DNA of 64,000 nucleotides from contig CAINFC010000294.1 in assembly GCA_903847975.1 (NCBI GenBank), positions 811-64,810 on the forward strand, read 5' to 3'. The stretch comes from an uncultured Acidobacteriota bacterium. GTDB lineage: Bacteria; Acidobacteriota; UBA6911; CAINFC01. Positions 2,365 to 16,744 of this stretch are shown here, piece by piece (the first letter of the stretch is position 1; the number at the start of each line of letters is the position of its first letter). Position numbers and translations under genes: made by a program. Below the pieces are notes generated by a model that saw only the letters and a list, made by a program, of their open reading frames with translations, was not told the origin of the DNA and searched no databases.

Positions 2365-4128
2365 ATGAAGCCTTACGACCTGCTCCTGGTGCACGCGCAC
2401 CGCGATTCCTTCGCTGCCTTTTATGAAGACGTCTCCATCGGGACCAACCTTCTGGCGGGCACGCTTCGGGCCCGGGGATTCGAGGTCGGATATTTTCGAG
2501 GCTTTGCCGTGGAGGCCGCCGCCTGGATCCGAGCCGAATGGCGCGGTCGGGGCGCCCGGGCCATCGGGTTCTATTGCGATTACGAAAACGAAACCCTGAT
2601 TGCCGAGATGGGCCGGGGCCTTCGGGCGGTTTCGGACCTCCCCCTGATCGTCGGCGGGCCGCAGGCCTGCTTCCTGCAGGAGGATTTTTTCCGGCGTTCA
2701 GGGTGCTGGGCGGCGGTGCGGGGGGAAGCGGAGGATACGGTGGCCGAGCTGCTGGCGCTGCTGCGCAACGGAAGCGGCAGTCGGGAAGGCATTGCCGGAA
2801 TCAGTTTTCCGGGGCCGGATGGCCGGCTGATCCGGAATCCGGATCGGGAGCCGATTGCCGACCTGAACGCTCTTCCCTGGCCGGACTTTACCATGGAAAA
2901 GAATCATGCCCATTGGGTCAGCCTCCCGGTGCTCTCCGGCCGGGGCTGCCCCTTCCGCTGCGGATTTTGCTTTCAGGGAGCGGTTTCCACCCGGGTGCGC
3001 CTGCGCAGCGTCGCCGAGGTCATGCGCGAGATCCGCCACCACTTTGCGGTTCATGCCAACCTGCGATCCGTATATTTTGTGGACGACACCTTTACCCTCC
3101 ACCCCGGGCGGGTCGGGGAGTTTTGCGAAGAGCTGGCGCGGCTGCGCCAGGAGCGCGATTTCGTCTGGTTTTGCGAGGGGCACGTGCAGACCCTGCACCG
3201 CTGGCCGGAAATGGCAGAGCAGATGGCCGCCGCCGGACTGGTCAAAATCTTCATCGGAGTGGAATCCGGTTCGGATCGGGTGCTGCAGCTCTACCGCAAG
3301 CAGACCACGGCGGCCATGATCGAAGAAACGGTCGGGCAGTTGGTCCGGGCTGGCATCCCGCAGGTGGTCGGAAACATCATCCTCGGCGGGCCGCAGGAAA
3401 GTCCGGACACGGTTCGGGAAAGCAGGGAGCTGGTATTCCGCTTGCTGGACGCCCATCCCGGCCGGTTCGACTGCCTCGGATTTTTCCTGGTTCCTTTTCC
3501 CGGCACTGCGGTGGCCGAGCAGCCCGACGCGCTGGGGCTGCGCCTGCTGGATCACGGGCGCAAGGCGGTGGTGGACGACATTCCCTTCACCGAAACGGAA
3601 AGCCTGTCCTTTCCCGATCTGTTCCGAATCCGGCGGGAGTTCCATCGGCAGACGCTCACCCGAATGCGGGAGCTGTTTCTGGCCGGCCAAATCCCTCGTC
3701 CGGTCCTGGAGTCGATCTATCATCTTCATGGCCGCTACGGGATCGGCTCGCGCTGGATGCAGAATATTTTCCGGCTCTACCCGATGTCCCACCGCTACTA
3801 TTCGATGCTGGCCGGGAAAGCGATCCGCTCCCCGAAGGGGGTATCCTGCGTAAGGATTCGGCGCTGGCGCCCGCGCCGGCTCTTCGAGATCTGGAACGGA
3901 GTCCGTTTTACCAACGGCTACCCGGAGCTGGCCGGAATACCGCTTTCTCCGCTGGAATATGAACTGCTTCTGCCGTGTACCGGGAAGCTGACTCTGGACG
4001 AAATCCTGGAGAAGACCTTCCCGAAATTCCAGGAGCGTTTTCCGGACCGGGCCGCCTTCCGCCGCCTGGCGCGGCAGCTTCTTCTTAAAATGGAAGCCCG
4101 GTGCTGGATCGGCTTTCACGAGGCCTGA
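2365..4128 (+). CDS. B12-binding (class B) radical SAM enzyme, paralog 1, with C-terminal PqqD-like RRE motif
   Basis: CxxxCxxC cluster SGRGCPFRCGFCFQG. N-terminal Rossmann-type cobalamin-binding-like domain (LLLVHAHRD...GFYCDYENE...IVGGPQA). C-terminal LSPLEYELLLPCTGKLTLDEIL. ATG at 2365 was chosen by alignment with the paralog 2 N-terminus. The track ORF begins at GTG 2275. Confidence 0.85.
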   Translation: MKPYDLLLVHAHRDSFAAFYEDVSIGTNLLAGTLRARGFEVGYFRGFAVEAAAWIRAEWRGRGARAIGFYCDYENETLIAEMGRGLRAVSDLPLIVGGPQACFLQEDFFRRSGCWAAVRGEAEDTVAELLALLRNGSGSREGIAGISFPGPDGRLIRNPDREPIADLNALPWPDFTMEKNHAHWVSLPVLSGRGCPFRCGFCFQGAVSTRVRLRSVAEVMREIRHHFAVHANLRSVYFVDDTFTLHPGRVGEFCEELARLRQERDFVWFCEGHVQTLHRWPEMAEQMAAAGLVKIFIGVESGSDRVLQLYRKQTTAAMIEETVGQLVRAGIPQVVGNIILGGPQESPDTVRESRELVFRLLDAHPGRFDCLGFFLVPFPGTAVAEQPDALGLRLLDHGRKAVVDDIPFTETESLSFPDLFRIRREFHRQTLTRMRELFLAGQIPRPVLESIYHLHGRYGIGSRWMQNIFRLYPMSHRYYSMLAGKAIRSPKGVSCVRIRRWRPRRLFEIWNGVRFTNGYPELAGIPLSPLEYELLLPCTGKLTLDEILEKTFPKFQERFPDRAAFRRLARQLLLKMEARCWIGFHEA

Positions 4129-4129
4129 C

Positions 4130-5920
4130 ATGAATCCCACCGCAAACAGGAACACCCCCTCTCCGTACGACATTCTACTGATCCATGCCCATCGGGACTA
4201 CTATTTTGCCGCCGCGGACGGGATCGCCATTGGAACCCTGCTGCTGGCCTCGGTTTTACGGGATCGCGGACTGCGGGTTGGCTATTTCCGCGGCTTTGCC
4301 GGGGAAACCGCCGGGTGGCTGCGGGCCGAGCTGGAAGCGACCGGAGCGCGCTGCGTCGGCTTTTACTGTGACTACGAGAACGTGACCCTGGTGGAATCCC
4401 TGTCGCGGATGGTCAAATCCGGCGGGGAAATACCCGTGGTGGTGGGAGGCCCGCAGGCCTTTGCGCTGACCGAAGAGTTCTTCGAGCGGTCGCGCTGCGA
4501 TTTCGCCATCCGCGGGGAGGCGGAAAGGACCCTGCCGGAGCTTCTGGAGCACCTTCTGGAGGGAAAGGGCTGCCGGGAGGCCATCGACGGAATCAGCTAT
4601 CCGGACGGCGGCGGGCGGCTGGTCCGAAACCGGGACCGGGAGCTGATCGCGAATCTGGATGAGCTGCCCTTCGCGGACTTCCGCCTGGAACGGCGCTGGC
4701 CCTACCAGAAAAGCCTGCCGGTGCTCAGCGGGCGGGGGTGCCCCTACCGCTGCGCTTTCTGCTTCGAAGGCGGCAACACCCGGACCGTCCGATACCGCAG
4801 CGTGGGCCATGTGATGGCCGAAATCCGGGAGAATCTGAACCGCCGGCCCGACCTGCGCTCCGTCTTTTTTCTGGACGATACCTTCACTCTGAACCGGCAG
4901 CGGGTGGAAGAATTCTGCCGGGAACTTTCGCAGCTGCGCCGGCAGCACGATTTCGTATGGTTCTGCGAAGGGCACGTGCAGACCATCAACCGCCACCCCG
5001 ACCTGCTGCCGGTCATGGTGGCAGCCGGCCTGGTCAAAATGGCCATCGGCATCGAGTCGGGCTGCGACGAAACGCTCCGGCTGTACAACAAGCAATCCTC
5101 GGCCGCGGAAATCGAAGCCGCGGTGGGACGCCTGGTGCGGGCCGGCGTGCCGCAGGTCGAGGGGAATATCATCCTGGGCGGGCCGCAGGAAACAAAACAA
5201 ACCGCCCGGGCCAGCCTGAACCTGGTCCTGCGGCTGCTTCGGGCCCATCCCGGAAAATTTTTCAGCGGGGCCTATTTCCTGACTCCTTTTCCAGGAACAG
5301 CCATCACCTGCGCCCCGGAGCGGTTTGGCCTGAAATTTCTGCCCCCGAGAGTGAAAAGCGGGCTGGACGACATCCCGCAGGCTGAAACCGAAGCGTTGTC
5401 GATTGCCCGGCTTTTTGAAATCCGGCGATCCTTCGTCCGCCGCGTCCATTCCGCCATGAGCCGGATTCTGCACTCCGGGAAAGTGCCGCACGACTCGATG
5501 ACCTCCGCGTATCGGCTGGCGGCCCGCTACGGCATCGCTTCGCGCTGGCTGCAGAACCTGACCGGGCGGGTTCCGGTCACCGACCGCTATTTCTCTCTGC
5601 TGGCCCGCGGCGGGGCGGTTTCCTCCCGCGGCATCCGGCGGGGGCGGCTGATGAAAATGCACCCGATGCGCACGTTCGAGGTCTGGAATTCGATCCGGTT
5701 TTCGGAAGGCTATCCGGTGATCCAGGGTTTTGCCCTTTCTCCCCTGGAGTACGATCTGCTGTGCGCCAGCAGCGGAAAGCGGCCGCTCGGCGAGATCCTG
5801 CAATCCGCCTTCCGGAAATTCGGGAGCAGCAGCGGCGATTATTCCGAATTCGAAAAGCTTTCTATGGGACGTCTGAAGGCCTTCGAGAAAAAGCACTGGC
5901 TGGCCTATTCCGAATTCTGA
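4130..5920 (+). CDS. B12-binding (class B) radical SAM enzyme, paralog 2, with C-terminal RRE motif
   Basis: 596 aa. SGRGCPYRCAFCFEG. N-terminal ILLIHAHRD...GFYCDYENV...VVGGPQAF. C-terminal LSPLEYDLLCASSGKRPLGEIL. Starts 2 nt after the paralog 1 stop, suggesting operonic coupling. Confidence 0.9.
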   Translation: MNPTANRNTPSPYDILLIHAHRDYYFAAADGIAIGTLLLASVLRDRGLRVGYFRGFAGETAGWLRAELEATGARCVGFYCDYENVTLVESLSRMVKSGGEIPVVVGGPQAFALTEEFFERSRCDFAIRGEAERTLPELLEHLLEGKGCREAIDGISYPDGGGRLVRNRDRELIANLDELPFADFRLERRWPYQKSLPVLSGRGCPYRCAFCFEGGNTRTVRYRSVGHVMAEIRENLNRRPDLRSVFFLDDTFTLNRQRVEEFCRELSQLRRQHDFVWFCEGHVQTINRHPDLLPVMVAAGLVKMAIGIESGCDETLRLYNKQSSAAEIEAAVGRLVRAGVPQVEGNIILGGPQETKQTARASLNLVLRLLRAHPGKFFSGAYFLTPFPGTAITCAPERFGLKFLPPRVKSGLDDIPQAETEALSIARLFEIRRSFVRRVHSAMSRILHSGKVPHDSMTSAYRLAARYGIASRWLQNLTGRVPVTDRYFSLLARGGAVSSRGIRRGRLMKMHPMRTFEVWNSIRFSEGYPVIQGFALSPLEYDLLCASSGKRPLGEILQSAFRKFGSSSGDYSEFEKLSMGRLKAFEKKHWLAYSEF

Positions 5921-5925
5921 ACGCC

Positions 5926-7677
5926 ATGCCCCCGCCCGAGAAGCTCTATATCCTGCTGCTCTATATCCAGCGCCTGGCGCCGGGAAGAAATTTCGAGCAC
6001 CTGGACAGCCTGGGAATCATGACCCTGGCGGCCTTTCTGGAAGACAAGGGCTACAGGGCGCGCACCTACACCGGGATTACCACGGATGCGCTCCGCGTGG
6101 CGGAGGAGGAAATAGGGCGGGAAAACCTGGGGGCCATCGGGCTCACCTGCGATTACGACAATCAGAGCGCGGTTATCTCCTTTGCCCGGGCCATTAAGGG
6201 ACGACACAGGATTCCGATCATCGTTGGAGGTCCGCAGGCTTTTCACCTGCGCTCCGGATTCCTGCGGGAGGCCCGCTGCGATTTTCTGATCAAGGGGGAC
6301 GGGGAGCAGGCGCTTTTCGAGTTGCTGGAGTGCCTCGGCGAAGGTCGGGATCCATCCGCATCGATTGCCGGCCTGACCTGTTTCGATCGGGATGGGGTCG
6401 AGAGGGAAAATCCGCCGAGGCCCCCCGGGCGAAACCTGGATGGGCGGCCTTTTCCCCGAACCCGCTACCGGCTGCGGCCGGGGAAGCGACGGGCGCTCTC
6501 GGTCATTGGCAGCCGGGGCTGTCCCTACCGCTGCTCGTTTTGTTTCGAGGGCGGAAACACCAAGCGGTTCCGCCCGCGCAGCGTGGGCGACGTGATGGCC
6601 GAGATCCGTCTGGGCCTGGAGGAGAACCCGGAGGCCCGGTACCTGATGTTCCAGGACGATACCTTTACCCAGCAACCAGACCGCACTCTGGCCTTCGCCC
6701 GGGAGCTGGCCGCACTGCGCCGGACGCGCGACTTCGTCTGGTTTTGCGAGGCGCATCCCGGCTTCCTGGTGCGTCATCCCGAAGTGCTGCCGGAAATGAT
6801 CGGCGCCGGCTTGCAGCGCATGCAGATCGGGTTCGAATCGGGGTGCCGGGGCACCCTGGATCAGTATCGGAAGGGAATCAGCCCGGAGCAGCTTCGGGAG
6901 GCGGTGCGGCTGTGCTGGGATGCGGGGCTGCCTCAGCTGGCGGGCAATTTCATCATCGGCGGGCCGGGGGAAGAGGAGCGAACCCTCACGACCACCCGTG
7001 ATTTTATCCTGGAGATCCTGAACGGCTTCCCCGGAATGCTGGACCTGTCCACCACCTTTATTAATCCGCTTCCGAATACCGAAATTACCCGGCAGCCGGA
7101 AAAATTCGGGATGATAATTACGGATCCGGAGATGTGCACCTCGCTGGAAGACTACCCGGTGAACGAAACGCTATCGCTGGACCGCGTGGCCATATGCCGG
7201 GCGAGGCGAAACATGGTGGAGGCGATATCCGCGACCATGAAGCGGCAGTATGCGGAAGGACTCATTCCTGCAGGCCGCATGAAAAGGCACTTCGAACTGG
7301 CTCTGCGATACGGAGTATCGAGCAGCTGGTTCAATTATGTTTTTTCGCGGGATGAAGTCTGCATGAGCTACCACACCCTTCTGCTCTTCACTTCCGCCCG
7401 GGGCATCGATGAAGCCAGGCCGGAGGAACTGCAAAGTGCCTTTCCGCTGCGCGTCGCCGACCCGGAAGGGATCGGACCCGGCAGGGGATCGCGCCTCGGG
7501 GCGCTTCTCTCCGCAGACGACCGAAGGATTTTAGGCGCTTGCGATGGTAAAACCCGCCTGGACGCCCTGGCGGCGCTCTTTTCGGGCAGGAGCGGCGCCA
7601 GCGCAGTGCCGCCGGATCCCTTCCTGAGCCGAATCGACGATCTGTCAAGGCGTCGCTGGCTGGTTTTTTTTCACTGA
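5926..7677 (+). CDS. B12-binding (class B) radical SAM enzyme, paralog 3
   Basis: GSRGCPYRCSFCFEG. N-terminal B12-like domain (GLTCDYDNQ...IVGGPQAF). ATG 5926 lies 6 nt after the paralog 2 stop. The track ORF start 5761 overlaps paralog 2 and is unlikely. The C-terminal ILGACDGKTRLDALAALF is a degenerate RRE-like motif. Confidence 0.85.
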   Translation: MPPPEKLYILLLYIQRLAPGRNFEHLDSLGIMTLAAFLEDKGYRARTYTGITTDALRVAEEEIGRENLGAIGLTCDYDNQSAVISFARAIKGRHRIPIIVGGPQAFHLRSGFLREARCDFLIKGDGEQALFELLECLGEGRDPSASIAGLTCFDRDGVERENPPRPPGRNLDGRPFPRTRYRLRPGKRRALSVIGSRGCPYRCSFCFEGGNTKRFRPRSVGDVMAEIRLGLEENPEARYLMFQDDTFTQQPDRTLAFARELAALRRTRDFVWFCEAHPGFLVRHPEVLPEMIGAGLQRMQIGFESGCRGTLDQYRKGISPEQLREAVRLCWDAGLPQLAGNFIIGGPGEEERTLTTTRDFILEILNGFPGMLDLSTTFINPLPNTEITRQPEKFGMIITDPEMCTSLEDYPVNETLSLDRVAICRARRNMVEAISATMKRQYAEGLIPAGRMKRHFELALRYGVSSSWFNYVFSRDEVCMSYHTLLLFTSARGIDEARPEELQSAFPLRVADPEGIGPGRGSRLGALLSADDRRILGACDGKTRLDALAALFSGRSGASAVPPDPFLSRIDDLSRRRWLVFFH

Positions 7678-7720
7678 TTCGGGTTTTGCACCGGAAAGCC
7701 CGGGAACGGAAAAAAATTCT

Positions 7721-7999
7721 TTAGCTGGCAGTCTGAACGCCGACGAAGACGTAGTCCACGCCGACAATGGACAGCCCGCCGGCGACCTTGTCGAGCTCCT
7801 CGTCGCTCATGGCTTTCTTGGGACCGGCGGCCAGGCTTTCCTGGGCGGCCTGACGGAATTCCGGGATGGAAACCTCGAATCCCTGCCTTTGGGCGATGCT
7901 GAGGAAATCCTCTTCCGACTTGGCCTTTTTCAGCTGGTTCTGAAGGTCGATGTCCGACTGGAGCTTGGCGACCAGGGCTTTGGCACTTTCTGCTGACAT
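7721..7999 (-). CDS. RiPP precursor peptide with Nif11-type leader, Gly-Gly cleavage motif and 17-aa core
   Basis: 92 aa: MSAESAKALVAKLQSDIDLQNQLKKAKSEEDFLSIAQRQGFEVSIPEF...AMSDEELDKVAGG|LSIVGVDYVFVGVQTAS. The N-terminus matches the Nif11 domain pattern (L..kl..d..Lq..l..a.s.ee...iA...GF). It ends with the ELxxVAGG double-glycine motif. SD GGGAGG lies 8 nt before the ATG at 7999. Confidence 0.8.
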   Translation of the reverse strand: MSAESAKALVAKLQSDIDLQNQLKKAKSEEDFLSIAQRQGFEVSIPEFRQAAQESLAAGPKKAMSDEELDKVAGGLSIVGVDYVFVGVQTAS

Positions 8000-8050
8000 G
8001 TTAAAAACCTCCCACGAAAATTAACATTGAAAGAAAGGAAAGAGGTAAAC

Positions 8051-8079
8051 ATTATAGGGGAAAAGGCGGTTCTTTGCAA
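8051..8079 (-). promoter_or_regulatory. Near-consensus sigma70-like promoter for the precursor peptide gene (TTGCAA-N17-TATAAT)
   Basis: On the minus strand, -35 TTGCAA is at 8079-8074, followed by a 17-nt spacer and -10 TATAAT at 8056-8051. This places the promoter about 50 nt upstream of the precursor ATG at 7999. Confidence 0.45.
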
Positions 8080-8187
8080 CCGGTGGCCCGCTTTTTTTTG
8101 TTCTGCCAGGCGCAATCCGTCGGCTTTCGGGCTTTCGCGAGAACTCTCCTCATTGGGACGGCAGAACCGCACCCCGTCCACGACTTC

Positions 8188-8273
8188 TTTCGCTATCGCT
8201 ATCGCTATCGAAAAGATCCCTTCGCGGGGTATGGCGACGGGTTTTTTGTTTCGATCACGATAGCGATAGCGAA
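8188..8273. repeat. Large inverted repeat: 26-nt arms containing (CGCTAT)3 hexamer repeats, 34-nt spacer
   Basis: Left arm tttcgctatcgctatcgctatcgaaa (8188-8213). Right arm tttcgatcacgatagcgatagcgaaa (8248-8273). The arms are reverse complements with 2 mismatches. The repeat lies between the 3' end of rSAM paralog 4 and the precursor promoter. Confidence 0.7.
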
Positions 8274-8315
8274 ACAAGGAACCCCATTGAGGGTTCCGGA
8301 CTTTTTGCGGCGCCA

Positions 8316-10079
8316 TCAGTATTCGCTGAAGGTCACCAGGTATGCGGCATCGAATTTCCGCAATACCTCCATGGCTGCGCGCTCCAGGTCCTCCTGAGGA
8401 AAGCGCCCCTTCAGGTCGGCAACCATGTCATCCAATCGCTGCTTGCCGGAGCTTTGCAGGAGGATTTCCCATTCCAGGGGCGAAAAAGGTTTCCCGTCCA
8501 GGTGGGGAACCTCGCCAATAAAAACCAGGTTCTTGCGGAGTTCCGTGGTCCGCAGAGGGTGAAACGCGCCGATTTTACCGGGGGGAATGTCCGCGAGCCG
8601 GACCGCCTCCCCGCGGGAAACCAGGCGGTAGTATTCCTCCAGGGCGGGATTCTCCGCGTACACCAGCGCTTTCCAGAGACTGGTCAAACCGTAGGAATAG
8701 TGCAGCCGGTAGCTGCTCAGAATTCTCTCATGGGGCACGCGTCCGCCTTGCAGGGCTTCCGACATGACCGTCCGGATATGGGCGGCAAGCCGGAGCCGCC
8801 GGGTCAGCACTTCTTCCGCGGTCTGCCCTTCGGGGACCACCAGCGGAAAATCGTCGACCGAGCTGCTTCCCTCGGGATCGAGGATTCTCAGGCCGAACCG
8901 CTGCGGGTTGGAGGTCACTTCCGTACCGGGATAGGGCCGGAGGAATCCGGTGCTGATATCCAGTGCGCCCGGGGCCATCTCCAGCAGCTGCCGGGTGCGC
9001 TGCAGCAGATTTTCAAACCTTTCCGGAGTCTCCAGCGGGCCGCCGACAATCAGGTTCCCGGCCACCTGCGGTATCCCGGCCTGCATGGCCTGGCGGACCA
9101 CGAATTCGATTTCCTCCACGGTGCCTTTTTTATTGTAAAGGTCCAGGACGTCCTGGTCGAGGCTCTCGATGCCGATCTGCAGCCGCGCCAGCCCTGCTTC
9201 GGCCAGCTCGGCGAGCATACCCGGGCGGCGGGCCAGCGGCTGGACGTGTCCTTCGCAGAACCAGACGAAATCGTGCTCCCGGTGCAGCCGGGCGATTTCC
9301 CGGCAGAAGGCGGTTACCCGCGCCGGGTCGGCGGTGAAGGTATCATCGGAGACATACAGGTAGCGCAGCCGGGGATTGCGGATGAGATTTTCCCGGATTT
9401 CGCGGATCACCTGGCCGATGTCCCGGTTGCGGACCTTCCGGCCGTGAGGGTCCTTGTAGCAGAAGGCGCAGGAGAAGGGGCACCCTCTTCCCGTGGAAAC
9501 GGTTCTCCCATAGGACGCCCCGGGAGTCAGGGAAAGGTGGTAGGCGGGAAAGGGAAGGGCATCCAGATCCTGCGGCGGAACGGCGTCTGCATTGCGGATG
9601 ACCTTGCCTCCGGAAAGGTAGGAAATGCCGGGAATTTCCGCAAGCGCCGGTTTTCCCCGGATCAGAAAGCCAACCAGGGCGGGCAGGATTTCTTCCGCCT
9701 CTCCGCGCACCGCGAAGGAGCAGCCGCACGTCCGGAAGAACTCCTCTCCCAGGGCGATGGCCTGCGGGCCGCCCACAATGGTTTTCCGCCGGTACTTGCG
9801 ACGCACCAGGCGGCACAGCTCCTCAACCGCAGTCCGGTTTTCAAAATCGCAGGAAAATCCGACGGCAATCAGACGCAGTTCGGCACAGAGCTTTTCCAGG
9901 ACGGCCGGAAACTCATGAGCCGGGCCATGGAAAACGCGGGCCTGGTAGCCCTGCTTTTCCAGGACGGCGGCCAGCAGAAAAAGACCCAGGAAGTCCGACG
10001 GCGGAGAGGGCGGGCCGGGGGCGGCCCGCCGCGTGTCGGCCAGGAGGATCGCCGGTGTTCGCGGATCAGAGGGGTGCAT
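8316..10079 (-). CDS. B12-binding (class B) radical SAM enzyme, paralog 4, with C-terminal RRE motif
   Basis: TGRGCPFSCAFCYKD. N-terminal B12-like domain (GFSCDFENR...IVGGPQAI). C-terminal FSPLEWEILLQSSGKQRLDDMV. ATG 10079 was chosen. The track ORF starts at TTG 10103. The start overlaps the paralog 5 stop by about 14 nt. Confidence 0.85.
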   Translation of the reverse strand: MHPSDPRTPAILLADTRRAAPGPPSPPSDFLGLFLLAAVLEKQGYQARVFHGPAHEFPAVLEKLCAELRLIAVGFSCDFENRTAVEELCRLVRRKYRRKTIVGGPQAIALGEEFFRTCGCSFAVRGEAEEILPALVGFLIRGKPALAEIPGISYLSGGKVIRNADAVPPQDLDALPFPAYHLSLTPGASYGRTVSTGRGCPFSCAFCYKDPHGRKVRNRDIGQVIREIRENLIRNPRLRYLYVSDDTFTADPARVTAFCREIARLHREHDFVWFCEGHVQPLARRPGMLAELAEAGLARLQIGIESLDQDVLDLYNKKGTVEEIEFVVRQAMQAGIPQVAGNLIVGGPLETPERFENLLQRTRQLLEMAPGALDISTGFLRPYPGTEVTSNPQRFGLRILDPEGSSSVDDFPLVVPEGQTAEEVLTRRLRLAAHIRTVMSEALQGGRVPHERILSSYRLHYSYGLTSLWKALVYAENPALEEYYRLVSRGEAVRLADIPPGKIGAFHPLRTTELRKNLVFIGEVPHLDGKPFSPLEWEILLQSSGKQRLDDMVADLKGRFPQEDLERAAMEVLRKFDAAYLVTFSEY

Positions 10080-11829
10080 AGGCCAGCCAGTATTTTTCCT
10101 CAAAGAGTCTCATTTTTTTCATACAGGTTCTGTCGAATTCCCGGCGCCTGCGGTACAGGCCGGCAAATTTCGGGTAGACGGCGTCCAGGACCGCCTGCAG
10201 GGTCAGCTTCCCGGTGGAGTGCAGCAGCAGGTCGAATTCCAGCGGGGAGAGCACGTAACGGCCGATAGCCGGATAGCCTTCCGAAAAATCGACATCGTGC
10301 CAGAGCTCCAGAATACGCTGCGGTCGCCATCCCGGGAGCTCGCCGCGGGGGATTTCGCGGGAGCGCCGGACGGCTCTCCTGGCAATCAGCGAATAATAGG
10401 GACTAAGAAAGGGAACCCGGTCGTAAACGACCCTTCTCCAGATGAAACTCTGGCGCTCGACCCGTTCCCGGAAAGCGTAGGCGATACGCTCGTGGGGTAC
10501 CTTCCCTTCACGAAACAGCTTCCACATGACCTCCACCATGGAATCGACCAGGTATTTCTGCCCCTGGGCAATCGCCTCGCGGTCCAGCCCGGTGCTTTCC
10601 GTCAGCGGGAAATCGGAAATAGCCGTTCCTCCGGAGGGGTCGAGGACTTTCAGCCCGAATTTTTCCGGCGTCCGGGTAATTTCCGTGCCGGGATAGGGCA
10701 TGACCGGGCTTGGCGAAATTTCAATGATTCCGGGGGCGGTCCGTATCAGCTTTTCGACGAAGCGGCAGTTCTGTCCGGTGATTTTCCCGGACTCAAAGGG
10801 TGCGCCGGTGAGAATGCAGGCAAAGATCTGCCGGACTCCGGCCTTTACGGCATTCCGGACGACCCGCAGCACCATGGCCGGGGTGATCTTTTTCCGGCAG
10901 GCGTCGAGCACCTTCCGGGAAGCCGATTCGATGCCGATCTGCAGCCGGACCAGGCCGGACGGCACCATCAGGTCCAGCATTTCCGGCCAGCGGTCCAGCC
11001 TTTCGACGTGCGCCTCGCAGTACCAGCGGAAGTTTTTCCGGGTGCGAAGCCTGGCCAGCCCGGCGCAGATTTCTCTCACCCGCTCCAGGGAAAGAGTGAA
11101 GGTATCGTCGGTAAAGGCGATGTAATCGACGACAGGATATCGTCCCAGAACGGTTTCTATTTCCTGGAGGATGCTCGGGACGCTTCGGAACCTGGCTCTG
11201 TATTTGGCGGCTCCCTCCTGGCAGAAGGCGCAGCGGTACGGGCAGCCGCGCCCGGTCATGATGTTGTATCGGGGCTGCAGGATATAGTCCGGGCACAGGT
11301 GATAGGCGGGCAGCGGGATCAGGTCGAGATCTTCGACGATTTCCCCCGGGCCGGTGGAAATCAGGCTCCCGTCCTCCCCAAGGTAGAGGAGCCCGGGAAT
11401 CTTCCTCCAGTCCGGGTCCGGCGACGGCAGGCACTGCAGCAGGCGGAGCAGGGGCACTTCCCCTTCTCCGACCACGGCCGCCAGGCAGCCGGTTCGCTTC
11501 AGGAACCGGGCGTCAAATCCGACGGCCTGCGGTCCGCCGAGCAGGACCGGCACAGCGAACTGACCGGCGATCCATGGGCCAAGCTCCTGAACTTCCACCT
11601 GATTTTCGAAATCGCAGTATAAGCCGACCGCCAGCAGATGCGACCCCTCGGCTTTTTCACGGATCAGGGCCATGGCCCGGATCGGCTCGCAGCTGTAGAT
11701 TTCCGGAGCGTAGCCATGCGTTTCCAGCCAGGAGCCGAGGCTCAGCAGGCCGCCCGGGATTTCCCAGGCAATCTCCATGCTGGAGGGGATGATCCGATGA
11801 ACGTTGAGCAGCAGTACGGTCTTGGTCAA
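10066..11829 (-). CDS. B12-binding (class B) radical SAM enzyme, paralog 5, with C-terminal RRE motif
   Basis: TGRGCPYRCAFCQEG. N-terminal VLLLNVHRI...GLYCDFENQ...LLGGPQAV. C-terminal LSPLEFDLLLHSTGKLTLQAVL. TTG start 11829 is preceded by AGAGGA 7 nt upstream. Confidence 0.85.
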   Translation of the reverse strand: MTKTVLLLNVHRIIPSSMEIAWEIPGGLLSLGSWLETHGYAPEIYSCEPIRAMALIREKAEGSHLLAVGLYCDFENQVEVQELGPWIAGQFAVPVLLGGPQAVGFDARFLKRTGCLAAVVGEGEVPLLRLLQCLPSPDPDWRKIPGLLYLGEDGSLISTGPGEIVEDLDLIPLPAYHLCPDYILQPRYNIMTGRGCPYRCAFCQEGAAKYRARFRSVPSILQEIETVLGRYPVVDYIAFTDDTFTLSLERVREICAGLARLRTRKNFRWYCEAHVERLDRWPEMLDLMVPSGLVRLQIGIESASRKVLDACRKKITPAMVLRVVRNAVKAGVRQIFACILTGAPFESGKITGQNCRFVEKLIRTAPGIIEISPSPVMPYPGTEITRTPEKFGLKVLDPSGGTAISDFPLTESTGLDREAIAQGQKYLVDSMVEVMWKLFREGKVPHERIAYAFRERVERQSFIWRRVVYDRVPFLSPYYSLIARRAVRRSREIPRGELPGWRPQRILELWHDVDFSEGYPAIGRYVLSPLEFDLLLHSTGKLTLQAVLDAVYPKFAGLYRRRREFDRTCMKKMRLFEEKYWLAYAPL

Positions 11830-11856
11830 AACAGGTCCTCTATGCCCTCCGAAGGG

Positions 11857-13623
11857 TCAATATCGTGTGAAGATCAGAAATTGCCGGTTCTCCAGCTCCT
11901 GCAGGATGCGGATCATTTCGACCTCGCTCTGCGGCCATTGCTCCTTCCATCTCCCCGAGCCCTCGTGCCGCTCGAGCAGCTCCCCGATGGAGAACTTTCC
12001 GGTACAGTAAAGGATCACCTGGTACTCCGCGGGGGTGATCGGCATGCCGAGCAGCTCCGGCGGCTCTTTCCGGAAATCGACCGTATTTCCCAGGTAGGGA
12101 ATACGCACCGGCCGCCAGAGGCGGAGCTCCTCCCGCGGAATTTCGCACAGGCTGCGGGCCGAGCTGCTGCCGAGCAATGTGAATCTCCGGTCGAAGTTTA
12201 CGTGCTGGGAGTACACCAGGCTGTGCCAGGTGCTCGATATCCCGTATCGGCGGTAGAGCTCGTAGTGCCGGCGGATCCGCGCATGGGGAACGCCTCCCTG
12301 AAAGGTCAGGTCCCACATCAGCTGCCGGATTTGCCGGGAAAACCGCCGCCGGCCTCCGGCGATATGCTCCCGGCTGAGGCCGGTAGTGGCCGCCACAGGG
12401 TAATCTCCGGTGGAGGTCACCGAAGCGCTGTCGACCGGCCGGATTCCGAACCGTTCGGGGGATTGCGTCATGGTGGTTCCCGGGAAAGGGGTGTACAGTG
12501 TGTGGGTAATGTCAAGCATGCCGGGAGCCCGCCGGAGCAGGCGGGTCACGAATTCTTCGGTTTCGGCCAGGGTCTCCGGGGTTTCCATGGCCCCGCCGAA
12601 AATGATATTCCCGCACAGCTGGGGCAGGTCCTGTTTGACGCAGAGGTCCACGACCTGTTCGATCTGGGTCAGATCGGTACTCTTGCCGTACAATTGCACG
12701 ACCTTTGCGGAGCCGGTTTCGATGCCAATCTGCATCCGCACCAGCCCGGCCTCGATCATTTCCGGCAGCATGTCCGGCCATTTTACGATCAGGCTGGGGT
12801 GCGCATCGCAGAACCATACGAAATCGTGCCGGCCCCGCAGCTCCTTCATGGCCCCGCAGAACTCGGTGACCCTGCGGGGATTCAGGGTGAAGGTGTCGTC
12901 GGCAAACCATACGTAGCGGATGCCCGGGGAATCCCGAAAGCCCTGCTCGATTTCCTCCCGCACGCTCTGTACGCTGCGCAGCCGCACGTTGCGGGTGTTT
13001 CCTCCTTCGAAGCAGAAGGCGCAGCGGAAAGGGCATCCCCGGCCGGTAAGCACCGCCAGGTTGGTTTTTTTGCCGGTCAGAGAAAATTCGGCCCGGGGAA
13101 CCGGCAGGGCATCCAGGTCTTCGATGGCCGGCCGGTCCGGAGTTCGGATCAGCTGCCCGGTGGCATCCAGAAAGGTAATGCCGGCGATTTCCTGCAGCGA
13201 TCCTTTGCCCTTCACAAAAAAATCCAGCAGCTCCGGAAGAGTCTGCTCTCCCTCTCCGCGCCCTACCGCATCGCAGAGAGAAGACCGGAGAAACCCGGCT
13301 TCCAGAAAATACCCCTGCGGCCCGCCGGCAAAGACGGGTACGGAGTACTTTCCTTTGGCGGTGCGGGCAAAGGATTCGACCACATTCTGGTTTTCATAGT
13401 CGCAGTAAAGGGCGATGGCCTGGACCCCTTCTTTCCGGTACATATTTTCGAGAAGGGGCAGGGCGTCGGTAATCGATCCGGTGAAAACCCGCGGGCAGTA
13501 GCCATGCCGGTCCAGGGCCGCCGCCAGGGTCATCAGCCCGATCGGCTCTACGTAGCGGTAGAACTGCTTGAAAGAGGCTCTCTGCAGGAAAAGCAATAAA
13601 ACTTTGGCAATACCCCTGGTCAT
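11857..13623 (-). CDS. B12-binding (class B) radical SAM enzyme, paralog 6, with C-terminal RRE-like motif
   Basis: TGRGCPFRCAFCFEG. N-terminal B12-like domain (ALYCDYENQ...FAGGPQGY). C-terminal ITPAEYQVILYCTGKFSIGELL. ATG 13623 (MTRGIAK...) has AAGGAAA immediately upstream. The track ORF extends to 13800, but that extension lacks homology to the paralog N-termini. An alternative ATG is at 13647. Confidence 0.85.
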   Translation of the reverse strand: MTRGIAKVLLLFLQRASFKQFYRYVEPIGLMTLAAALDRHGYCPRVFTGSITDALPLLENMYRKEGVQAIALYCDYENQNVVESFARTAKGKYSVPVFAGGPQGYFLEAGFLRSSLCDAVGRGEGEQTLPELLDFFVKGKGSLQEIAGITFLDATGQLIRTPDRPAIEDLDALPVPRAEFSLTGKKTNLAVLTGRGCPFRCAFCFEGGNTRNVRLRSVQSVREEIEQGFRDSPGIRYVWFADDTFTLNPRRVTEFCGAMKELRGRHDFVWFCDAHPSLIVKWPDMLPEMIEAGLVRMQIGIETGSAKVVQLYGKSTDLTQIEQVVDLCVKQDLPQLCGNIIFGGAMETPETLAETEEFVTRLLRRAPGMLDITHTLYTPFPGTTMTQSPERFGIRPVDSASVTSTGDYPVAATTGLSREHIAGGRRRFSRQIRQLMWDLTFQGGVPHARIRRHYELYRRYGISSTWHSLVYSQHVNFDRRFTLLGSSSARSLCEIPREELRLWRPVRIPYLGNTVDFRKEPPELLGMPITPAEYQVILYCTGKFSIGELLERHEGSGRWKEQWPQSEVEMIRILQELENRQFLIFTRY

Positions 13624-13645
13624 TTTCCTTGTTACCGGGATACCC

Positions 13646-13651
13646 ATTATA
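13646..13651 (-). promoter_or_regulatory. Candidate -10 box (TATAAT) upstream of rSAM paralog 6
   Basis: Minus strand reads ...cgtccagTATAATgggtatcccggtaacaAGGAAAATG. A perfect TATAAT lies 23-28 nt upstream of ATG 13623, within an AT-rich 100-bp gap after the hybrid HK gene. No good -35 was seen. Confidence 0.3.
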
Positions 13652-13726: not shown

Positions 13727-15931
13727 TCAGGGCTGGTTCTTCTGCACCGTCCGCCGGTCGAGCAGCTGACGGATTTTTTGCAGAAGCACCTCGCGCTCAT
13801 AGGGCTTCTGGATCAGGTGCAGCTGTTCGTGGATCACGAAATCGGTATGGATGCCGCTCTGGCTGTAGCCGCTGGTAAACAGGATGGGGACCTCCGAGCC
13901 GGTGGCCCGGATCTGGTCCATGACCTCTTTCCCTCCCAGGTTAGGCATCATGACATCCAGCACCACCAGGTCGATCCGGTTCCGGTTCCGCTCGTAGATC
14001 TGGAGGGCTTCCAGGCCATCCGCAGCGGTCAGGACGGTGTAGCCGGCTTTGCGGAGAAAGGCCGCCTGGATGTGCAGAAGGGCGGTATCGTCCTCTGAAA
14101 TCAGGATGGTCTCTTTCCCGCCGGTCAGGGCCGGTTGGGAAGGGTTCGGCGATTTTTCGTTGGCGACCTCGACGATGGGCAGGTAAACCTGGAACACGCT
14201 GCCCTCTCCCGGCTTGCTGGAGGCGTGGATCAGGCCGTGATGCTGCTTGACGATTCCATACACGCTCGACAGGCCGAGTCCTGTCCCTTTTCCCAGGCCC
14301 TTGGTGGTAAAGAAGGGCTCAAAGACCTGGGCCAGCGTCGAGGCATCCATGCCGGCCCCGGTGTCCGCTACGCTCAAAAGAGCGTAGGCTCCCTCTTTGG
14401 CCCAGGCATTCAGGCTGCAAAACGACCGATCCAGAATTTCGGGACGGATTTCGATGGTGATCCGGCCGCCTTTGGGCATGGCATCCCGGGCGTTGATGCA
14501 GAGGTTGAGGAGAACCTGCTCCATCTGTCCCTTGTCGGCAAAAACATTGCCGGTCTTATGTCCGCTGACAACGCAGAGCTGGATGTTCTCTTCGATCAGC
14601 CGCCGGAGCATTTTCAGGACGCCCTGCACCAGGTCGTTCAGGTCCAGGTATACCGGGTGGATCACCTGGCGCCGGCTGAAGGCCAGGAGCTGACGGGTCA
14701 GGTCGGCAGCCCGCCGCCCGGCCGAGCTGATTTCCTCACATTCGCTCCAGGCCAGGGTGCCGGGCATAAGTTCCGACTGAAGGCTGTCGGCATTCATCAG
14801 GATCACCTGCAGCAGATTGTTGAAGTCGTGGGCCACTCCTCCGGCCAGATGTCCCACTGCTTCCATTTTCTGGGACTGGCGCAGCTGCTCCTCCAGGGTC
14901 TTCTGCTCCTCCTCCCTCTGCTTCCGTTCGGTGATGTCCTGGACAATACCGACGGATCGGACCGGTTCTCCCTGGGTATCGAATTCATTCCGGCCGATCG
15001 CCTTGACCCACTTGATCCGGCCGTCCTTCATGCGCAGCCGGTATTCGATTTCGAGAGGACGGTATTGGGAAACGGACAAGGTATAGGCTCGATGGACCAT
15101 ATCGCGGTCTTCCGGATGAATGCTTTCCAGGAAAGCTTCGTAGGTCGCTTCGAACCGCTTCGGGTCGATTTCGAAGAGCTCGAAAATTTCCGGCGGCCAT
15201 TGCATGCGGTTATCCTTCCGATCGAGGCTCCACATGCTCATTTTGGCAATCCGCTGCGCTTCCCGGAGATTGGCTTCGCTCTCCCGCAGCGACCGCTCCG
15301 CGTGCCGGCGGGCCTTCAGCTCCGCCTCCAGATCCTCCTTGGTCTTCACCAGGTCGGCGGTCCGCTCGCGTACCCGGACTTCCAGCCCGGCCTGCGCCCG
15401 GCGGAGCTCCTCCTCCTGTCTTTTTGCGGCGCTCATATCGGTAAGGATCAGGCAGACGGCCGTAATCTTATCTTCCATTTCCAGGGAAATGGCGGAAAGA
15501 AGCACCGGGACGGTCCCCTCCGGATCGACGGCCAGATTGAGCTCCAGGGCCTTTCCCGTGGCCAGATCCTCCCGGATCAGACGGTCAAAGGCCGGCCGGT
15601 CGGGGAGGGAAATCAGCGGGAGGAAGGAATTTCCGATGATCTGTTCCATCGGCTTGCGCAGCAAGGCCGCCAGGCTCCGGTTGCAGTACATGGTGCCGCC
15701 GTCCCGGGTCAGGATGGCCGCCCCCTCGTTCATGTTTTCCACCAGCAGGCGGTAGGTGCGCTCCGCATGCTGCAAGGTGAAGACGCGCTGACCCCCGGGG
15801 CCCGAAACGATCAGGGCGTCCACTTCGCCGCAGCGGATGGCATGCAGCGTATGCTCGGCCTCCTCCAGTCGGGCGCGAAGTTCCCGGATTTCCCGGTGAA
15901 GGCCTTGACTCGAAGATGGATTCCTGGTCAT
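13727..15931 (-). CDS. Hybrid sensor histidine kinase (PAS domains, HisKA, HATPase_c, C-terminal receiver)
   Basis: 734 aa. H-box HLAGGVAHDFNNLLQVI. ATPase G-boxes (DTGAGMD, GLGKGTGLGLS). C-terminal REC ILISEDDTALL...LVVLDVMMP. Coiled-coil and PAS segments are N-terminal. The start overlaps the kaiB stop by 4 nt (ATGA). Confidence 0.85.
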   Translation of the reverse strand: MTRNPSSSQGLHREIRELRARLEEAEHTLHAIRCGEVDALIVSGPGGQRVFTLQHAERTYRLLVENMNEGAAILTRDGGTMYCNRSLAALLRKPMEQIIGNSFLPLISLPDRPAFDRLIREDLATGKALELNLAVDPEGTVPVLLSAISLEMEDKITAVCLILTDMSAAKRQEEELRRAQAGLEVRVRERTADLVKTKEDLEAELKARRHAERSLRESEANLREAQRIAKMSMWSLDRKDNRMQWPPEIFELFEIDPKRFEATYEAFLESIHPEDRDMVHRAYTLSVSQYRPLEIEYRLRMKDGRIKWVKAIGRNEFDTQGEPVRSVGIVQDITERKQREEEQKTLEEQLRQSQKMEAVGHLAGGVAHDFNNLLQVILMNADSLQSELMPGTLAWSECEEISSAGRRAADLTRQLLAFSRRQVIHPVYLDLNDLVQGVLKMLRRLIEENIQLCVVSGHKTGNVFADKGQMEQVLLNLCINARDAMPKGGRITIEIRPEILDRSFCSLNAWAKEGAYALLSVADTGAGMDASTLAQVFEPFFTTKGLGKGTGLGLSSVYGIVKQHHGLIHASSKPGEGSVFQVYLPIVEVANEKSPNPSQPALTGGKETILISEDDTALLHIQAAFLRKAGYTVLTAADGLEALQIYERNRNRIDLVVLDVMMPNLGGKEVMDQIRATGSEVPILFTSGYSQSGIHTDFVIHEQLHLIQKPYEREVLLQKIRQLLDRRTVQKNQP

Positions 15932-16257
15932 TTTTTTCGCAAGTCAAGCCCGATGAGAACCTTGTCGGTGTCCGAAAGGTCCCCGATGATGCGCCGCAAG
16001 GGCAGCGGCAGTTTTTTAATGAGCGTCGGGGCAGCAATGATCTGCTCCCCCTCCGCCAGGGTCGGCTGCTGATAGATATCCACCACTTCCAGGGTGTAGC
16101 GGCCGTGCAGGTGCTCCTCGCAGATCTTGCGGATGTTGGCGATGGCCCGCACGGAACGGGGAGTAAGGCCGGTTACGAAGAGGCGTAAAACGTAATTGGA
16201 CGACTGGGTCCGGGTCAGCGCCTTTTCAAACGAAGCCGTCGCCGATCTGGTTTTCAT
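15928..16257 (-). CDS. kaiB: Circadian clock protein KaiB (copy 1)
   Basis: 109 aa. YVLRLFVTGLTPRSVRAI...LEVVDIYQQPTLAEGEQIIAAPTLIKKLPLPLRRIIGDLSDTDKVLIGLDL. Near-collinear match to cyanobacterial KaiB, including the RRIIGDLSD block. Confidence 0.85.
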   Translation of the reverse strand: MKTRSATASFEKALTRTQSSNYVLRLFVTGLTPRSVRAIANIRKICEEHLHGRYTLEVVDIYQQPTLAEGEQIIAAPTLIKKLPLPLRRIIGDLSDTDKVLIGLDLRKK

Positions 16258-16261
16258 GAGG

Positions 16262-16615
16262 TCAGTCTTCTCCCTTCGGCTTCAGGTCCAGCCCGACCAG
16301 CACGCGCTCCGTGTTGGACAGATTCCCGATGATCCTGCGCACCGGCGGGGGAAGCTTGCGGATCAGGGTAGGCAGGGCCACGATCTGATGGTCCTGGGCC
16401 AGTTGGGGGTTTTCGAGGAGGTCGATGATTTCGATCCGGTACTGCCAGCCAGCCAGGTTTTCCTCACAGATCCGGCGGAGGTTGGAAAAAGCCTCGAGGG
16501 ATTTGGGCGTCTGTCCGGCGACATAGAGCTGCAGGATCCAGACCTTGCTTCCGTCCCGCAATGGGCCTTTTGACCGGGATGTTTTCCGGGCGGCATCGGC
16601 CGCGATGTCCTTCAT
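16262..16615 (-). CDS. kaiB: Circadian clock protein KaiB (copy 2)
   Basis: 117 aa. [18 protein letters not shown]...[51 protein letters not shown]. Its stop is 4 nt from the start of kaiB copy 1. Confidence 0.85.
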
Positions 16616-16744
16616 GAAGTTCCTCTGCTTTCTTGAGAACCGTCATTGGGAAAAATGTTTGGATTCCCTTCGAGGGATGCGGAGGATTCCCCACCGGGAG
16701 AGAAGCGAATGCACTTCCCCGACCCCGGGAGATGCCTGCGCGCT

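Follow-up and report, generated by a model that had tools for sequence, protein, structure and literature searches.

The locus and its hairpin

The window analysed here is a 64,000-nucleotide (64-kb) stretch from an uncultured Acidobacteriota bacterium (assembly GCA_903847975.1, contig CAINFC010000294.1, positions 811 to 64,810 of the forward strand), and "the window" means the whole of it. It holds a cluster for a ribosomally synthesised and post-translationally modified peptide (RiPP), and the element under study is a 95-nt hexamer-repeat palindrome at 8184-8278, in the spacer between the minus-strand modification genes and the precursor gene. Read along the minus strand, the order is KaiC, KaiB, KaiB, a hybrid histidine kinase (13727-15931), three radical S-adenosylmethionine (radical-SAM) genes (11857-13647, 10066-11829 and 8316-10079, two of the three with a significant B12-binding domain), a spacer of 316 nt and the precursor gene. 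The last B12-binding radical-SAM gene, 587 aa as called on independent contigs, ends with its stop codon at 8316-8318, and the palindrome sits 38 nt past that stop. The precursor (7721-7999, minus strand) is a 92-aa protein with a Nif11-type leader, and its core after the GG motif is LSIVGVDYVFVGVQTAS. It has a Shine-Dalgarno sequence, GGGAGG (8013-8008, minus strand), and a predicted sigma-70-like promoter of its own close to the consensus (TTGCAA-17-TATAAT, 8051-8079, minus strand; 10/12 matches), whose -35 box lies 105 nt beyond the end of the palindrome. From the other side, three plus-strand B12-binding radical-SAM genes (2365-7677) converge on the precursor gene. Along the minus strand the spacer thus contains a small hairpin, the big hairpin, about 100 nt of G+C-rich sequence, the promoter-like site and GGGAGG, and these gene and promoter calls bear out the placement given in the original prediction, behind a modification-enzyme operon and ahead of the precursor promoter.

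That prediction described 26-nt arms at 8188-8213 (TTTCGCTATCGCTATCGCTATCGAAA) and 8248-8273 (TTTCGATCACGATAGCGATAGCGAAA), with 2 mismatches and 34 nt apart, which can be read directly in the sequence. An inverted-repeat search widens them to 8184-8213 and 8249-8278, making arms of 30 nt that are 90% complementary, lie 35 nt apart and share a perfect 15-nt core. The first arm contains three perfect CTATCG units (8193-8210), a degenerate outer unit (CTTTCG) and an A-rich inner edge; the second contains the units CGATCA, CGATAG and CGATAG (8252-8269) and one degenerate outer unit (CGAAAC). The gap between the two unit arrays is 41 nt, and the loop proper (8214-8248) begins with AAAAG and ends with TTTGTTT. 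Allowing up to 2 mismatches, the window has 4 occurrences of the 14-mer CGCTATCGCTATCG against 0.32 expected, every one within the element, and a relaxed scan for phased ATCG/CGAT arrays found no second copy in the 64 kb. Among the window, the fetched loci and the metagenomes of the Joint Genome Institute (JGI), the loop sequence was found at this locus only; a window-specific 24-mer from the loop had 0 matches in the JGI metagenomes. When the spacer was compared by blastn with all fetched loci, the hexamer arms were the sole matching part, and the element had no plasmid match.

The palindrome is predicted to fold with unusual stability. As minus-strand RNA, the strand that the original prediction proposed to fold as a check, the 95-nt element reaches -50.5 kcal/mol (z -10.7), and as plus-strand RNA -49.0 kcal/mol (z -7.5), with none of 200 shuffles as stable in either case. 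Single-stranded DNA gives -29.1 kcal/mol (z -7.1), again equalled by no shuffle, and the big stem is retained in folds of 151-nt and 331-nt contexts. Four strain-level contigs from several assemblies (L001-L004) are nearly identical where they overlap; three of them (L001-L003) span the hairpin and carry it without change, which rules out an assembly artefact, and the fourth ends before it. Because these contigs are so similar, they hold no covariation information. The differences seen nearby are at position 8156, an A in the window and a G in L001-L003 (L004 does not reach it), and in the loop of the small hairpin (8297-8278; window 8286-8291), where L001 is one T short.

The hairpin is missing from orthologous clusters

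We found 13 precursor homologues at 53-69% identity with a conserved core following GG (LSIVGVDYAFVGVQTSK), six of which could be placed on contigs; the longer contigs share the layout of three radical-SAM genes, a Nif11-leader precursor and three radical-SAM genes. No hexamer run or comparable hairpin occurs in the spacer between the last radical-SAM gene and the precursor gene in any of these six orthologous clusters (122, 97, 43, 43, 43 and 259 nt). The C-terminal codons of the window's last radical-SAM gene match those of orthologues without the hairpin. In the closest orthologue (L180) that gene ends with the same codons as in the window, and a TTGCCA-17-TATAAT promoter follows 34 nt past the stop. 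The corresponding distance in the window is 236 nt, so the window's lineage appears to have gained about 200 nt, of which 95 nt are the hexamer hairpin.

A dispersed family of hexamer palindromes

We scanned one reference genome per species (596 Gb) with the pattern CTATCGCTATCG-N(30-60)-CGATAGCGATAG, which has 24 specified bases and a chance expectation of about 0.1 match in the whole collection. The scan returned 46 loci in 23 genomes, and further phased units adjoin the pattern in 44 of the 46; the window element itself also matches. The two matches without further hexamer units, in Devosia insulae DS-56 (L024:14-81, a long perfect palindrome at a contig end) and in a Dehalococcoidia metagenome-assembled genome (MAG; L019:1605-1679), are probably unrelated to the family. 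Carriers span about six phyla. They include Desulfobacterota (Desulfosarcina, Desulforapulum, Desulfobacteraceae, Desulfohalobiaceae), Acidobacteriota (Thermoanaerobaculia), Verrucomicrobiota together with Kiritimatiellia, Lentisphaerae, Ca. Auribacterota (Erginobacter), a Chlorobi-type genome and a gammaproteobacterial MAG. Some genomes carry many copies: at least 16 in a Thermoanaerobaculales MAG (12 seed loci and 4 more found inside them), at least 11 in a Desulfohalobiaceae MAG and at least 5 in Ca. Erginobacter. With the dinucleotide left free, the pattern (ATCGNN)x4-N(8-38)-(CGATNN)x4 matched at least 120 metagenome loci with 116 distinct loops.

The family is essentially absent from viruses and plasmids. 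In viral contigs the CT-specific pattern had 1 match and an unbiased three-unit pattern 0; reversing the arm order gave 2 matches, one of them apparently coding. The larger repeat unit of the Desulfohalobiaceae MAG described below had no plasmid match. Against Rfam 15, the window had no match at the gathering score, and the best hits for 8000-8400 (inspected up to E 10) had E values of at least 0.2 and looked like chance; seven other element-bearing loci matched only tRNA and TPP families, elsewhere than in the element. A literature search by 12-mers, NNATCG-type strings and descriptive terms returned no description of the family; its coverage was incomplete and an earlier description is possible. 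Having neither an Rfam entry nor a description that we could find, the family is apparently undescribed.

A common plan unites the 44 members: 3-8 NNATCG units make up the 5' arm and 3-6 CGATNN units the 3' arm, with 9-63 nt of loop between them. Over the whole family the range is (NNATCG)3-8, a variable loop of about 4-63 nt and (CGATNN)3-8, and members measure about 60-125 nt. With at least three units of each kind around a loop of about 4-63 nt as the definition, the window element, which has three perfect units in each arm, belongs to this family. It also agrees with the family profile, in which 65% of members open their loop with an A and TCG is retained in the outer flank at 61-67%: its loop starts with AAAAG and has a T-rich end, and its outer units are degenerate.

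What is conserved in the family is the phased core. The genome-set search fixed just two units per arm; in the neighbouring units, the A, T, C and G of the core each reach 74-97% in strict 6-nt phase. The free NN positions carry 0.05-0.5 bit in the genome set. In the unbiased set the dinucleotide is CT in 28%, GG in 15%, GT in 14%, AA in 12.5%, GA in 8% and CA in 6% of units, with G or C as its first base in 79%. Unit order is not mirrored between the arms: NN complementarity is 0.642, against 0.638 ± 0.010 once the order of units within the arm was shuffled, and the mean folding energy is likewise unchanged (-38.65 against -38.86 kcal/mol, Wilcoxon p 0.14). Chimeras between elements have a lower NN complementarity (0.52, against 0.642 in the unbiased set); real elements exceed them because unit composition is common to both arms. 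The potential to form a hairpin thus comes from the periodic cores and one dominant unit, not from unit-by-unit compensation. We also considered compensatory evolution of the stem as such and rejected it, since NN complementarity in the CT-biased set (0.703) does not exceed that of chimeric arms (0.705), nor does the unbiased set exceed its shuffles.

Where a genome holds near-identical copies, their arms differ by 6- or 12-nt indels and their flanks by point changes, and we read the arm indels as probable slippage of whole units, independent in each arm. In the fetched loci, about 1 Mb in all, hexamer runs form 173 pairs with the ATCG arm before the CGAT arm and 0 in the reverse order, and 23 runs are unpaired, a count that is biased by how the loci were collected. 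The viral contigs were uninformative as a control for arm order (two reversed-order matches). One of them, IMGVR_UViG_3300009702_000353 (L178:5510-5570), has the reverse layout, (CGATNN)6 then (ATCGNN)3 with almost no gap, and is the sole clear reverse case.

Genomic sites and larger repeat units

Gene context was assigned by a crude open reading frame (ORF) rule together with Pfam spot checks; the rule got the strand wrong in the case of the window, and only unambiguous ORFs of at least 200 aa were counted. For the 36 elements with such flanking ORFs, the spacer is co-directional in 19, convergent in 8 and divergent in 9, and in the co-directional cases the median gap is 55 nt on the side of the preceding stop and 49 nt on the side of the following start. 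The neighbours are unrelated housekeeping genes. Those checked with Pfam include a NifX-like gene, PCMT with an undecaprenyl-phosphate translocase-like gene, DUF1425 with LpoB, ArsR-methyltransferase with AdoHcyase, two Proton_antipo_M (nuoL/M-like) genes and ABC ATPases. A survey of the 2.5 kb around about 170 elements for recurring neighbour families returned only the abundant ABC ATPases and two-component proteins, and no transposase-like family.

Two genomes carry the hairpin inside larger units that resemble miniature inverted-repeat transposable elements (MITEs). In the Desulfohalobiaceae MAG (S24.Bin096) it occupies the middle of an approximately 210-bp unit whose terminal inverted repeats are 18 bp long (GTCAGCCCTGCCGCTGGC). 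Copies lie at seven loci (L012, L021, L023, L034, L041, L044 and L047), in either orientation, and are distinguished by arm indels of 6 or 12 nt. Some of these copies have a further 35 nt or so in common on the left, which leaves the true ends uncertain. In the Thermoanaerobaculales MAG one subfamily forms a unit of about 230 bp with the ends CTGTCATCCTGAG and CTCAGACCGACAG and the hairpin, with the loop ATGCGCCCCGTGCCAATCCGGCCATT, at its centre; copies lie at L014:1480, L025:1992, L035, L040, and L050:125 and 3471. Two copies of this unit flank a 991-aa ORF, an arrangement that is also present on a metagenome contig (L095). Other family copies fill spacers that are too short for units of about 200 bp.

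Terminator-like features within and beside the element

The original prediction stated that no U-tract follows the hairpin on either strand. This is correct for the outer stem, which is followed by GAAGUCGUGG on the minus strand and by CAAGGAACC on the plus strand and does not have the make-up of an intrinsic terminator, in which a U-tract comes immediately after a short-looped, G+C-rich stem of 5-12 bp. It missed an inner hairpin with a T-run in the loop and a separate small hairpin on the minus strand. The inner hairpin, CCCTTCGC-GGGGTATG-GCGACGGG at 8218-8241, is preceded by an A-run and followed on the plus strand by TTTTTTGTTT (8242-8251). Its folding energy is unexceptional (z -1.4 on the plus strand and -1.8 on the minus strand), and its stem is interrupted by an internal mismatch, which kept the terminator scan from flagging it. 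It looks like a bidirectional terminator, apparently stronger on the plus strand.

The small hairpin, GGAACCCTCAATGGGGTTCC at 8297-8278 on the minus strand, was flagged by the terminator scan with the tail TTGTTTCGCT (feature 8268-8297). It folds at -13.3 kcal/mol (z -2.45), lies 18 nt past the radical-SAM stop codon and abuts the big hairpin; the TTGTTTCG that follows it on the minus strand is the base of the big stem. The signature of the hexamer family does not include it. The region has 2 terminator-like sites, compared with 2.1 expected from shuffles. Facing the hairpin, two weaker promoter-like sites lie on the plus strand at 7993-8055 (CTGACA-17-GAAAAT and TTGAAA-17-CATTAT, 9/12 matches each), where they overlap the precursor promoter and 5' region; a putative plus-strand transcript starting there would stop at the T-rich inner hairpin (8242-8251).

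Interpretation of the hairpin

We consider the hairpin to be, probably, one copy of a dispersed, non-coding palindromic family, similar to the repetitive extragenic palindromes (REPs) and MITEs of other bacteria, and not a regulator dedicated to this pathway. The element would have arrived in the window's lineage within the roughly 200 nt of extra spacer between the radical-SAM stop and the precursor promoter. Transcription of the spacer, if it occurs, would give a stem-loop of about -50 kcal/mol at the 3' end of the radical-SAM operon RNA, and the big hairpin and the adjacent small hairpin (8297-8278) could together act as a passive barrier to 3' exonucleases and to read-through. The big stem-loop might in this way protect the radical-SAM transcript, as at most a passive RNA barrier or 3'-end stabiliser, while the precursor would rely on its own promoter for expression. 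Antisense transcription on the plus strand may be stopped by the T-rich hairpin inside the loop.

The original prediction saw in the hairpin an insulator or processing stem-loop of the kind that uncouples the precursor from the enzymes in RiPP operons and so sets the precursor-to-enzyme ratio, or else the operator of a dimeric cluster regulator. The site between the last radical-SAM gene and the precursor's own promoter would suit such a role, the stem is very stable, and the independent strain-level assemblies spanning the element do not differ in its sequence. Even so, it is missing from all six orthologous clusters, which have the same gene order, and the same type of hairpin occurs at unrelated loci, at family level in about 21 reference genomes, which represent about six phyla, and at no fewer than 120 metagenome loci; a dispersed repeat of this kind is what the prediction itself had named as evidence to the contrary. 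Since the family lies at unrelated loci and is missing from the sister clusters, the hairpin is not a dedicated control element of the RiPP pathway as far as these comparisons reach, and we regard a cluster-specific role as improbable. The operator variant fares no better: the element stops 105 nt short of the -35 box, and no DNA-binding regulator is among the genes called within about 10 kb (KaiC, two KaiB, the hybrid kinase, six radical-SAM genes, an oxidoreductase and a methyltransferase), the nearest signalling genes being the hybrid histidine kinase and KaiB/KaiC. The position, the hexamer periodicity and a plausible passive effect, insulating or protecting a 3' end, survive from that interpretation, and the dedicated RiPP-operon element does not. 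An element that is mainly a transcription terminator is unlikely too, though somewhat less so. The minus-strand operon would then end at the small hairpin (8297-8278), at the inner hairpin followed by AUCUUUUCG, or at both, and for antisense plus-strand transcripts the end point would be the inner hairpin with the U6GU3 behind it. The scan hit with its TTGTTTCGCT tail, the A-run before and T-run after the inner hairpin, and the place of the spacer between an operon and a gene with its own promoter all agree with this. The outer stem, however, lacks a U-tract on both strands, terminator-like sites are no commoner than in shuffles, and the inner hairpin has a z of only -1.4 and -1.8. Moreover, family members lie within operons (between two nuoL/M-like genes; between DUF1425 and LpoB) and in spacers between divergent genes (9 of the 36 scored), where a terminator would be harmful or pointless.

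A possible but distinctly less favoured explanation than the dispersed repeat is that the arms are phased recognition sites for a protein and that the hairpin is secondary, which is compatible with a dispersed repeat. Such a protein could act on DNA, as a mobilising transposase or recombinase or as a nucleoid protein, or on RNA, as an oligomer in which each subunit reads one unit. The remark in the original prediction that the periodicity favours protein binding over pairing fits the data here: the ATCG core is kept in strict phase in units that the search did not require while NN varies, and the same core recurs across about six phyla. Unit order is unmirrored at no cost in folding energy, so pairing alone does not explain the conserved positions, and the arrays are nearly always convergent pairs (173, against 0 reversed and 23 unpaired). 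No binding protein was found, however, as no gene family recurs beside the elements, and the absence of reversed pairs is biased by the collection of loci and has the viral contig as a counterexample. A mobile element of common descent in which the dominant unit (CTATCG, 28%) slips could also give the same picture, with no binder involved. A bolder form of the same idea would make the convergent arrays a cis-element class of their own, maintained across phyla by a conserved oligomeric protein that reads one ATCG core per subunit and co-opted here as a barrier, under the protein's control, that separates the enzyme operon from the precursor promoter; we think this unlikely. If it held, the protein would be a transposase or a host DNA- or RNA-binding factor, and the arms would be kept as binding platforms rather than for a mirror-image stem, and resized by unit slippage. 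That the repeats are coding is hardly credible. The ATC-GNN frame does read as Ile-Ala or Ile-Gly and the other arm as Asp-Ser, Asp-Thr or Asp-Pro, and one MITE subfamily has an open frame across the hairpin. We nevertheless rejected a small protein with (Ile-Ala/Gly)n and (Asp-Ser/Thr/Pro)n dipeptide repeats on grounds of loop length, stops and placement: the 116 loops fall into lengths modulo 3 as 49, 41 and 26, and only the 41 keep the frame; class-2 loops run into CGA-TAG stops; the elements fill spacers of 10-60 nt between Pfam-supported genes; and the window ORF through the first arm (8027-8263, plus strand, 78 aa) overlaps the precursor promoter.

Several points weigh against the dispersed-repeat explanation that we prefer. 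The 64-kb window holds one copy only, and multiple copies were seen in other genomes, the scanned collection being without the source genome. For the window copy we found no second copy, empty site, target-site duplication or outer terminal repeat; its loop is unique, and all of L001-L003 carry the element. The neighbour survey linked no transposase or other mobilising enzyme to the family. A conserved ATCG core in arms that are not mirror-matched suggests that there may be sequence-specific recognition beyond a purely passive structure, and the effects on transcription, termination and RNA stability that we propose are deduced from sequence and predicted folds.

The surrounding RiPP cluster

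The cluster (2365-13647) places a single Nif11-leader precursor between two convergent triplets of radical-SAM paralogues, most of them with a B12-binding domain. At least six metagenomic lineages, whose precursor identity is 53-69%, preserve this 3+1+3 arrangement along with the core peptide (loci include L051-L056 and L180-L182). Six B12-binding radical-SAM enzymes for a Val/Ile-rich core of about 17 residues may point to multiple C-methylations of the proteusin type. Directly upstream of the minus-strand radical-SAM genes, at 13727-18481 on the same strand, lie KaiC (16745-18481), two KaiB genes and the hybrid kinase, which has PAS, HisKA, HATPase and REC domains and a stop codon 80 nt from the first radical-SAM start. 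The arrangement of Kai and kinase genes repeats on contigs from other samples that encode an identical precursor, which are strain-level copies of the locus, and it was not seen in the orthologous clusters examined.

Comparison with known systems

For the RiPP cluster, the dispersed-repeat explanation means that the hairpin should not be read as regulatory design, and constructs for heterologous expression can probably omit it. The hexamer family itself presents intergenic palindromes of an unusual build and gives the search for a responsible enzyme or binding protein a defined target. It likely also causes contig breaks and spurious small ORFs in the MAGs that carry it.

The closest relatives in kind are REPs and the REPINs built from them, which are mobilised by RAYT transposases. 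Like these, the members of the hexamer family are short, non-coding extragenic palindromes that are multi-copy in some genomes, often lie just past stop codons or within operons and are probably transcribed as stable RNA hairpins. One published account (PMC3733652) describes REPs as 20-40 bp long with an unpaired GTAG or CGTC tag and credits them with roles in mRNA stabilisation, termination and supercoiling. With its 30-nt arms and 35-nt loop, the window element measures 95 nt and falls outside that size range, as does the family at about 60-125 nt. Nor is there a tag: the profile of 224 outer flanks has no conserved tetranucleotide, be it GTAG, CGTC or another, beyond the degenerate xTCG unit. 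The build differs as well, in that the arms consist of 3-8 phased hexamers around loops of 4-63 nt, they are not mirror images at the variable positions, and the core spans phyla and is not specific to one lineage. The survey of neighbouring genes showed no link to a RAYT gene.

MITEs such as Correia/NEMIS, RUP and ERIC resemble the family in being small, non-coding and bounded by inverted repeats, with near-identical copies at unrelated intergenic sites within a genome. The window element has these general features, namely terminal inverted repeats, a size of 95 nt and no coding capacity, with loops in the family free of frame constraint; the properties of bacterial MITEs have been reviewed (PMC3184786, PMC2229807). 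Near-identical copies exist in the Desulfohalobiaceae and Thermoanaerobaculales subfamilies, whereas none was found of the window copy. In contrast to a MITE, the members from different genomes have only the hexamer arrays in common, with unrelated loops and outer flanks; many copies lie in spacers too short for a 200-bp MITE, and we found no target-site duplication or parent insertion sequence.

Three other systems share single traits with the family. The short tandemly repeated repetitive (STRR) heptamers of cyanobacteria, like other microsatellite-type arrays outside genes, are intergenic head-to-tail arrays of a short unit whose copy number changes by whole units, and the hexamer arrays behave likewise. 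They differ in being two opposed arrays across a loop, with a 6-nt unit made of a fixed 4-nt core and a free dinucleotide. Hairpins of lanthipeptide operons, such as the one downstream of nisA, follow the precursor gene and belong to the design of the operon. The window's hairpin is likewise a stable one between the precursor and enzyme genes of a RiPP and could uncouple their transcript levels, but it is placed behind the enzyme genes, there is a separate promoter for the precursor, and the orthologous clusters do without it. Finally, TRAP binds 11 G/UAG repeats spaced by 2-3 nt, and HutP is likewise ring-shaped; their arrays are single-stranded, lie in specific leaders and have one orientation. 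The short conserved core, the period of 5-7 nt and the free spacer bases recall the hexamer arrays, an analogy that applies to the protein-recognition explanation only, whereas the hexamer arrays are paired with each other and dispersed across genomes.

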